A stretch of DNA of 773 nt from assembly GCF_003334335.1 (NCBI RefSeq), contig NZ_QOWQ01000151.1. The stretch is one strand, 5' to 3'. The position numbers and the translations under genes were made by a program. The notes beneath the pieces were generated by a model that made no database searches, was not told where the DNA came from, and saw only the letters and a program-made list of their open reading frames with translations. Positions within the stretch are counted from its first letter, which is position 1. The number at the start of each line of letters is the position of its first letter. Origin of the DNA: Escherichia coli. GTDB taxonomy: Bacteria > Pseudomonadota > Gammaproteobacteria > Enterobacterales > Enterobacteriaceae. Shown in pieces: positions 1-773 of this stretch.

Positions 1-773
1 GCCAGCGGCAGGCCGCGATGGTCGCAGTGGTACAGGTGGATTTTTCGCGCCGGCGTGTACACCGGGTCCATCTGGTTTTGCATCTGCTCCACGGTCAGGC
101 CGCACGATGCCAGCCAGCGGCGGCTTTCCTCACTCACCCGGTCAGCCAGGATTTCACTTTCCAGCCGGTCGAGCATCTGCACCAGCACCGGCGGGAACAC
201 CACACTGCCACCGTCTTCGCCGCCGGACTGCTGAAGGGCATCCGCCAGGCTGCGGCGCTGCGTTTTCGCCAGCTCACCGGTGGCGGTTTCAACTCTGATG
301 AGTGGCGTGAAGCTCCCCGGCTGATAAATCGTCTGGATGCGGGTTCTGTCGTTCTGTATTGTGGTCAGCCGGTCGCCGTCCCAGCCGTACCAGGTCACTT
401 GCGGTTTCCGTGACAGCGACATCCAGCCCGTCAGGTCCCGTTCACGCCGCCACACCCGTTTTGCCACCCTGCGGCCCAGCGGGTCGTAAAGATAGCGACT
501 TTCGACCAGCGGCTCTTCATATTGTGTCCGCGTGTAGTGCACCAGCCGGTGCTGACTGTCGTAATGGTACCGGTGAGTCCGCTCATCATCCGTGCGGATA
601 ACCCCTTCCGGGATGAGGTCGGTTTTCTCTGTCAGCCTGCCGTGACGGTCATACCGGTAAAGATAGTGCGCGTCACGGGCGATACGGTTATCCGGCCACA
701 TGCTGAGGGTGCTGTCCGGGTGCAGCTCCGGGTCGGGCAGGCGGTTACCTGCCGGGTCTGTGGCATACGGGAT
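1..773 (-). CDS. rhs: Rhs-family core protein (YD-repeat polymorphic toxin shell), internal fragment, partial at both ends
   Basis: Seen in sequence: the minus-strand frame with codons starting at 773 is open for 257 codons to position 3, with no stop. The translation carries repeated YD-repeat motifs ([47 protein letters not shown]) and ends in [15 protein letters not shown]. Established knowledge: I recognise this from memory as the C-terminal part of the conserved core of E. coli-type Rhs proteins (RhsA/B/C/D family); no database search was run. The paralogue or strain cannot be assigned from this fragment, so the symbol is given at family level only. GC of about 63% matches the known compositional signature of Rhs cores. 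Confidence 0.9.
3..41 (-). other. Start of RHS repeat-associated core domain ([14 protein letters not shown]), truncated by the window edge
   Basis: Translated residues 245-257 resemble the conserved Y-x-x-D-H-L/R-G motif that opens the RHS repeat-associated core domain just upstream of the DPxGL boundary in Rhs and YD-repeat toxins. The domain continues past position 1. Confidence 0.65.
351..398 (-). other. YD-repeat motif (protein level), [16 protein letters not shown]
   Basis: Translated residues 126-141: [10 protein letters not shown], a YD-repeat variant with Trp in the aromatic positions. Confidence 0.6.
459..494 (-). other. YD-repeat motif (protein level), [12 protein letters not shown]
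   Basis: Translated residues 94-105: Y-L-Y-D-x-x-G-R-R, a close match to the YD-repeat consensus. Confidence 0.75.
528..575 (-). other. YD-repeat motif (protein level), [16 protein letters not shown]
   Basis: Translated residues 67-82 contain a Y-x-Y-D...R-L core typical of YD repeats. This copy is degenerate, with Gly replaced by His. Confidence 0.6.
624..659 (-). other. YD-repeat motif (protein level), [12 protein letters not shown]
   Basis: Translated residues 39-50 of the minus-strand frame match the YD-repeat consensus (aromatic-x-Y-D-x-x-G-R-L). Confidence 0.75.

Follow-up and report, generated by a model that had tools for sequence, protein, structure and literature searches.

A fragment of an Rhs core gene

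The window, by which we mean the whole 773-bp stretch of Escherichia coli DNA that was analysed, is an ordinary internal piece of the conserved 3.7-kb core of an E. coli rhs gene of the RhsA-B-C type, and this gene fills it from end to end on the minus strand (positions 1–773). The identification is based on the open reading frame, on the match to the RHS_core family and on the exact placement of the sequence in full-length genes. On the minus strand, frame 1 (read from the reverse complement) is open over all 257 codons, and the remaining two frames of this strand are interrupted by stops throughout. Open reading frames on the plus strand (e.g., positions 18–413, 131 aa) were rejected as antisense shadows, since the minus-strand frame is fully open and has a very strong family match. 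The fragment corresponds to nucleotides (nt) 2695–3467 of the full-length gene, that is, to codons 899–1155 plus two bases of codon 1156, with the frame open at both ends; a window position p is thus converted to gene nt 3468−p, and positions given as nt hereafter refer to the gene.

The translated residues 1–257 aligned with positions 913–1169 of the 1261 positions of the NCBIfam model NF041261 (RHS_core; E value of 1.7e-166, 556 bits); the curated cut-off of this model (2000 bits) applies to the whole protein and is out of reach for a fragment spanning a fifth of the model. Where the identical 773 bp occur in a full-length gene, its annotation is RHS element core protein, RhsA, RhsB or RhsC. 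YD-repeat motifs, which form part of the Rhs beta-cocoon shell, were located at positions 525–662 (minus strand; translated residues 38–83) on the basis of TIGR01643 and of sub-threshold Pfam RHS_repeat matches. TIGR01643 (YD_repeat_2x) matched residues 61–83 with an E value of 9.7e-6 and 25.9 bits, against a cut-off of 15.8, and a Pfam scan of the fragment returned RHS and RHS_repeat below threshold only, the latter at residues 38–52 and 66–83 (E values of 0.05 and 0.7). The G+C content of the window is 58–66%.

Comparison with the solved Rhs cocoons 8cp6_B (Tse5) and 8qjd_A (the Rhs core of Salmonella bongori) aligned residues 17–171 of the translation with the C-terminal portion of their shell (E values of 8.6e-14 to 2.3e-8), a distant similarity. 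Only these residues were matched, and residues 172–257 (window positions 1–258) had no sequence counterpart among the solved Rhs structures; judging from the alignments, this segment may be a lineage-specific insertion in the shell.

Toxin delivery by Rhs proteins involves export, autoproteolytic release of the tip and protection by a cognate immunity protein. Neither a tip nor an immunity gene is present in the window, and it includes no flanking sequence. The PxxxxDPxGL motif lies outside the window, at residues 1238–1247 in every intact full-length gene that contains it; the core ends at nt 3741, such that the variable toxin tip starts 274 nt past window position 1. Divergence between the sequences sets in directly after this motif, which has been described as the demarcation of Rhs tips, with a sharp boundary between conserved core and variable tip (PMC3150448).

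Copies of the core in complete E. coli genomes

The five rhs loci of K-12 MG1655 were compared with the window. The rhsA, rhsB and rhsC genes of this strain are collinear with the whole window, with reading frame and gene position (nt 2695–3467) matching, and differ from it by 1, 6 and 16 bases, respectively (identities of 99.87%, 99.22% and 97.93%). Further copies in this genome are the ybfO orphan (98.58%), the 207-bp remnant in yibJ (96.6%), rhsE (78.0%) and rhsD (77.7%). The five places found by megablast in K-12 were all at least 96.6% identical to the window, and the copies at 78% (rhsD and rhsE) are not counted among them. These last two genes belong to a second core type, homologous to and collinear with the window at an identity of only 77.7–78.0%; they are too divergent to have long k-mers in common with it, so they would not collapse with it in an assembly and do not enter the megablast counts given below. 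Over their full length (3,741 nt), the K-12 rhsA, rhsB and rhsC cores were 96.7–98.9% identical to one another. The closed genome of strain CPF6 contains two copies at 100% identity to the window, in addition to an orphan (98.6%) and rhsC (98.3%), and its genes at the rhsA and rhsB sites are identical from nt 82 to nt 3467, that is, over 3,386 consecutive bases. The sequence-only reading had claimed that several near-identical cores of several kb occur per genome, and the K-12 cores and the CPF6 pair bear this out.

That reading had also proposed mapping the window to the complete genome. When the window was searched by megablast against 5,426 complete E. coli genomes, 3,886 of them matched, giving 17,565 places in total; a matching genome had between 1 and 10 places (median of 5), and 2,051 records had a best place at 99% identity or above. 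Sixty matching records were sampled at even spacing; 59 of them had a full-length match, and each of these 59 had two to six places. A few complete genomes had one matching place, and the multi-copy status is not universal. Five closed genomes have an exact match; in none of them was it a lone occurrence without another copy above 90% identity, each containing three to six places. Statements about identity within genomes are drawn from the place counts and from four genomes examined by hand.

Orphan remnants and exchange between copies

The orphan remnant of the ybfO type, found downstream of rhsC–ybfB, spans the whole window. It lacks core nt 1–2694, its homology to the core beginning exactly at nt 2695, and it continues into a different tip, followed by ybfC. 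It differs from the window at 11–13 sites in K-12, CPF6 and JMF1 and at a single base in Res13-Lact-PEA12-26. The orphan of the yibJ type, at the rhsA site, has 454 bp of homology with the main gene (nt 3261–3714), of which the first 207 nt (nt 3261–3467) correspond to window positions 1–207 on the minus strand; the 207-bp hits were 96.6–97.1% identical in K-12, UMNF18 and YY76-1. As positions 1–207 are also present in this orphan, the copy number is higher there than in the rest of the window.

The rhs genes owe their name to recombination between the nearly identical rhsA and rhsB sequences, and orphan modules are common (PMC3150448); in Salmonella, recombination between main gene and orphan through 522 bp of 95% identity has been demonstrated (PMC3967940). 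The earlier claim that the cores act as substrates for homologous recombination is in line with this published background and with two cases in the genomes compared here. The first is the rhsB gene of UMNF18 (25760–29995 in fetched-locus coordinates). Seven sites discriminate rhsA from rhsB of K-12 within window positions 237–360 (minus strand; nt 3108, 3123, 3125, 3174, 3177, 3183 and 3231), and UMNF18 rhsB carries the rhsA-type allele at all seven of them (nt 3108–3231), with B-type bases from nt 3468 on. It differs from K-12 rhsB at exactly these seven sites. The patch of at least 124 bp is consistent with gene conversion between paralogues, as judged from the distribution of alleles.

The second case concerns the gene at the rhsA site of CPF6 and EH09-18-41 (4,230 nt; 3505–7734 of the CPF6 locus and 11238–15467 of the EH09-18-41 locus, in fetched-locus coordinates). 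Up to nt 3672, this gene agrees with K-12 rhsA at each of the 34 informative sites; from nt 3714 onwards, all informative sites match the yibJ orphan, and the gene is collinear with yibJ–yibG. The rhsA tip and yibA are missing, and yibG comes next. A single switch from main gene to orphan is thus located at nt 3673–3713, inside the 454-bp homology. The switch could result from a recombination between main gene and orphan in which the rhsA tip and yibA were lost, or it could reflect the arrangement that preceded the displacement of an old tip by a new one. It corresponds to the single main-to-orphan switch of the rhs locus of Salmonella Typhimurium (Koskiniemi et al. 2014, PMC3967940), a case from another species and another locus, in which the homology was 522 bp at 95% identity, compared with 454 bp (yibJ) or 1,020 bp (ybfO) here. 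The Salmonella event was demonstrated (PMC3967940), whereas the one in E. coli is read from a comparison of genomes.

Contig ends at paralogue junctions

Both ends of the window coincide with positions at which copies of the core part company. Window position 773 corresponds to nt 2695, the first base of homology with the ybfO-type orphan. When a full-length gene was compared with the loci by BLAST, this homology started exactly at nt 2695, in K-12 as well as in JMF1, and a base-level view showed that the orphan bases upstream of nt 2695 are unrelated to the core. The ybfB–orphan junction was found in 2,668 of the 5,426 complete genomes. Window position 1 corresponds to nt 3467, the last shared base before a branch point, as seen in the mismatch lists, the base-level view and the graph fork described below. 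At nt 3468, rhsB-type copies have a G and rhsA-type copies a C, and a cluster of SNPs separating the A and B types begins at this base (nt 3468, 3471, 3479, 3487, 3494, 3495 and 3510). With one end at the start of the orphan homology and the other at the first A/B SNP, the window is the maximal segment shared between two branch points. We therefore consider that it is very probably a collapsed repeat node of the multi-copy Rhs core, produced by short-read assembly. Homologous recombination and gene conversion would transfer sequence among the copies at the rhsA, rhsB and rhsC sites and the truncated orphans; the window would be the maximal stretch common to several copies, bounded by the start of the orphan homology and the first SNP separating the types; and a short-read assembler would have emitted this unresolved repeat node as a stand-alone contig standing for two or more genomic copies. 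For the actual source, we infer the collapse from the boundaries, their recurrence in other contigs and the node obtained in silico.

The same boundaries recur elsewhere: the exact 257-aa translation was found on at least six other public contigs from 11 samples, and all six were exactly 773 bp long. To judge from the record names, they were produced by different assemblers; two are in NCBI assemblies and four in ENA metagenome assemblies. Each differs from the window by 1–5 nt, so they do not duplicate a single record, and the variable sites, with one exception, also vary between paralogues; the seven sites discriminating rhsA from rhsB are among those that vary between the six contigs. Although the contig index places the exact 257-aa sequence on these six contigs, the protein cluster table does not list it, and the total number of public contigs with the 773-bp node is probably larger than six. 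One of the contigs has a coverage of 34.7 in its record name (cov_34.7), the only depth value encountered.

A short contig of this kind might also come from a genome with a single-copy core, being short for unrelated causes, such as low coverage or metagenome fragmentation. The minimum of one place per matching genome would allow for such a source, and metagenome assemblies commonly yield short contigs. However, both ends fall exactly on paralogue junctions, for which we estimate a random chance of about 1e-5 to 1e-6 on the assumption of a handful of forks in the 3.7-kb core, and six other contigs terminate at the same two bases. In addition, there are three to six places in each of the five closed genomes that match exactly, and none of the 59 records of the full-length sample was a one-place genome. 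We thus regard a single-copy source as highly improbable.

The node could be reproduced from the copies in one closed genome. A de Bruijn graph was built from the three rhs loci of CPF6, which contain all four places of this genome, and was analysed by simple path-following. With k = 77, only two forks next to the window path failed to reconverge, one incoming at nt 2694 and one outgoing at nt 3468, and nothing but simple SNP bubbles lay between them; after bubble popping, the node extended from nt 2695 to nt 3467 and was identical to the 773-bp window. With k = 31 or 55, the split at nt 3468 re-joined and the node was not reproduced. The fork at nt 3468 stayed open for any k of 77 or more. 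With k of 99 or more, however, the orphan no longer joined the path, as it shares only 92 nt before its first SNP, and the node was likewise not obtained. The name of one of the contigs with the same boundaries suggests k = 141, which would require a genome with an orphan matching the main copy for longer. An orphan of this kind exists in Res13-Lact-PEA12-26, and no closed genome reproducing the 773-bp node at k = 141 was found. Res13-Lact-PEA12-26 was considered as a positive control and dropped, owing to its empty rhsB site, to a different allele shared by its rhsA-site gene and rhsC, and to two of its six places not having been fetched.

The forks bounding the window might alternatively reflect several E. 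coli strains mixed in one metagenome rather than paralogues within one genome. Four of the six contigs with the same boundaries are indeed from ENA metagenome assemblies, and the G/C difference at nt 3468 is also found between strains at one locus (YY76-1 and K-12, rhsA site). However, the fork at nt 2695 is a structural junction between orphan and full-length gene that exists within single genomes (the 2,668 of 5,426 mentioned above), both forks were reproduced from CPF6 alone, and the two remaining contigs are from NCBI genome assemblies. A strain mixture is therefore very unlikely to be the origin of the forks and, had it contributed, the locus and the tip would still be unassignable.

Another view would be that the 773-bp segment is a discrete biological unit, either a preferred conversion tract or a cassette, with ends that are recombination hot spots. 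This would fit the mosaic allele patterns inside the window and the conservation of the orphan junction at nt 2695 in thousands of genomes. However, the conserved junction is explained by the vertical inheritance of one ancient truncation, and the patches of exchange end elsewhere (nt 3108–3231 in UMNF18 rhsB, the switch at nt 3673–3713, and the identity of the CPF6 pair over nt 82–3467); nothing but the divergence of the copies marks the window ends in the sequence. We consider a discrete unit to be extremely unlikely, and a repeat collapsed between paralogues remains the reading that we favour.

The caveat of the sequence-only reading, that short-read assemblies often collapse or mis-join such copies, was supported for collapse by the ends at branch points, the recurrence of the 773-bp length and the CPF6 graph, whereas no sign of a mis-join was seen in the window. 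It is general knowledge of de Bruijn-graph assembly that rRNA operons and IS elements likewise give rise to short stand-alone contigs that end where the copies diverge and have the same length across assemblies. The collapse of an rRNA operon or IS element merely breaks scaffolds, whereas the rhs repeat sits inside a toxin gene, so that the link between core and tip is broken. A literature search returned no explicit report of short-read collapse at rhs. The biology of the multi-copy Rhs core encountered here is established knowledge that our data confirm, and what is added, namely that the contig ends at paralogue junctions, amounts to a technical diagnosis without new biology; the value of the result is accordingly practical or technical rather than scientific.

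Assignment of locus, tip and immunity gene

The window was found at 100% identity in five closed genomes, at three chromosomal sites as judged by the flanking genes. The exact 773 bp are located at the rhsA site (yibF to yibA/yibH) in UMNF18, YY76-1 and EH09-18-41, at the rhsB site (nikR to yhhH) in CPF6 and at the rhsC site (ybfA to ybfB) in JMF1; in CPF6, the exact window is present at both the rhsA and the rhsB sites of the same genome. The tips and immunity genes joined to the identical window include those with yibA, a yibJ-type tip followed by yibG, those with yhhH and those with ybfB, amounting to at least four pairs. The window can therefore not be attributed to one rhs locus or to one toxin tip. 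It had been proposed from the sequence that a core fragment of this size could not be assigned to a particular rhs locus, and that any tip or immunity assignment would hinge on correct linkage; the occurrence of the exact sequence at all three sites, two of them in CPF6, confirmed the former, and its association with at least four different tip/immunity pairs the latter.

The uncertainty extends beyond the full-length genes. In Res13-Lact-PEA12-26 (O157:H16, NZ_CP062876.1), it is the orphan after rhsC that is one base off the window, whereas the gene at the rhsA site and rhsC have the same 13 differences from it, both of them being annotated with internal stops. With a window-type allele on an orphan in this strain, the window is not assignable even to a full-length gene as opposed to an orphan. 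Given the four or more tip/immunity pairs in closed genomes and the possible orphan origin, the contig should not be named rhsA, rhsB or rhsC in annotation, should not be linked to a tip or an immunity gene, and should not be counted as one gene. Long reads would be needed for a tip or immunity assignment.

Two further features of these loci were recorded. The rhsB site of Res13-Lact-PEA12-26 is empty, with a hicA/hicB toxin-antitoxin pair between yhhJ and nikR. The rhsA gene of UMNF18 (7334–11468 in fetched-locus coordinates), which contains the exact window, is annotated as frameshifted, with a length of 4,135 nt versus 4,134 and one extra base upstream of the window; it could be a real pseudogene or the product of a sequencing error in an older assembly.

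Rhs fragments under other labels

A scan of species-representative genomes with window positions 120–179 yielded only two exact matches, both on short contigs in unrelated metagenome-assembled genomes (MAGs). These are SFGN01000288.1 (2,340 b), from a MAG of a Lachnospiraceae bacterium, and QFQM01000625.1 (1,548 b), from a MAG of Flavobacterium psychrophilum. The latter is 100% identical to the region of K-12 comprising the 3′ end of rhsA, yibA and yibJ. In SFGN01000288.1, sequence like that of the rhsA locus and sequence like that of the rhsB locus are joined across a shared HEAT-repeat gene, and both ends of the contig lie in the 3′ repeat of the core. The rhs contigs in the Lachnospiraceae and Flavobacterium MAGs look like mis-binned contamination.

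Similar fragments were found in PLSDB under Klebsiella pneumoniae plasmid labels. The linear record NZ_CP069827.1 (2,340 b) is equivalent to core nt 1241–3578. The circular record NZ_CP054971.1 (2,294 b) contains an rhsB tip, yhhH, a yibA-like gene and a 3′ remnant of the core, and is a circular permutation of SFGN01000288.1. Closed E. coli chromosomes contain the arrangement of NZ_CP054971.1 in linear form (in 915 genomes, 80% or more of it is covered), and the circular form of the record is most simply explained as a graph loop between direct repeats. The circles close through the 3′ repeat of the core, in a segment overlapping window positions 1–207. It is very unlikely that recurring small circles with an rhs tip and immunity gene are real excised DNA, the reciprocal product of recombination between main gene and orphan; if they were, they would provide a physical vehicle moving tip–immunity modules between loci or even between species. 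Rhs fragments mislabelled as Klebsiella plasmids or placed in Lachnospiraceae and Flavobacterium bins can mislead surveys of toxin distribution or horizontal transfer.

PLSDB also contains records of 4.8, 1.2, 1.3 and 1.0 Mb filed as E. coli plasmids, with two to five places matching the window; these records look like chromosomes or chromosome fragments labelled as plasmids.
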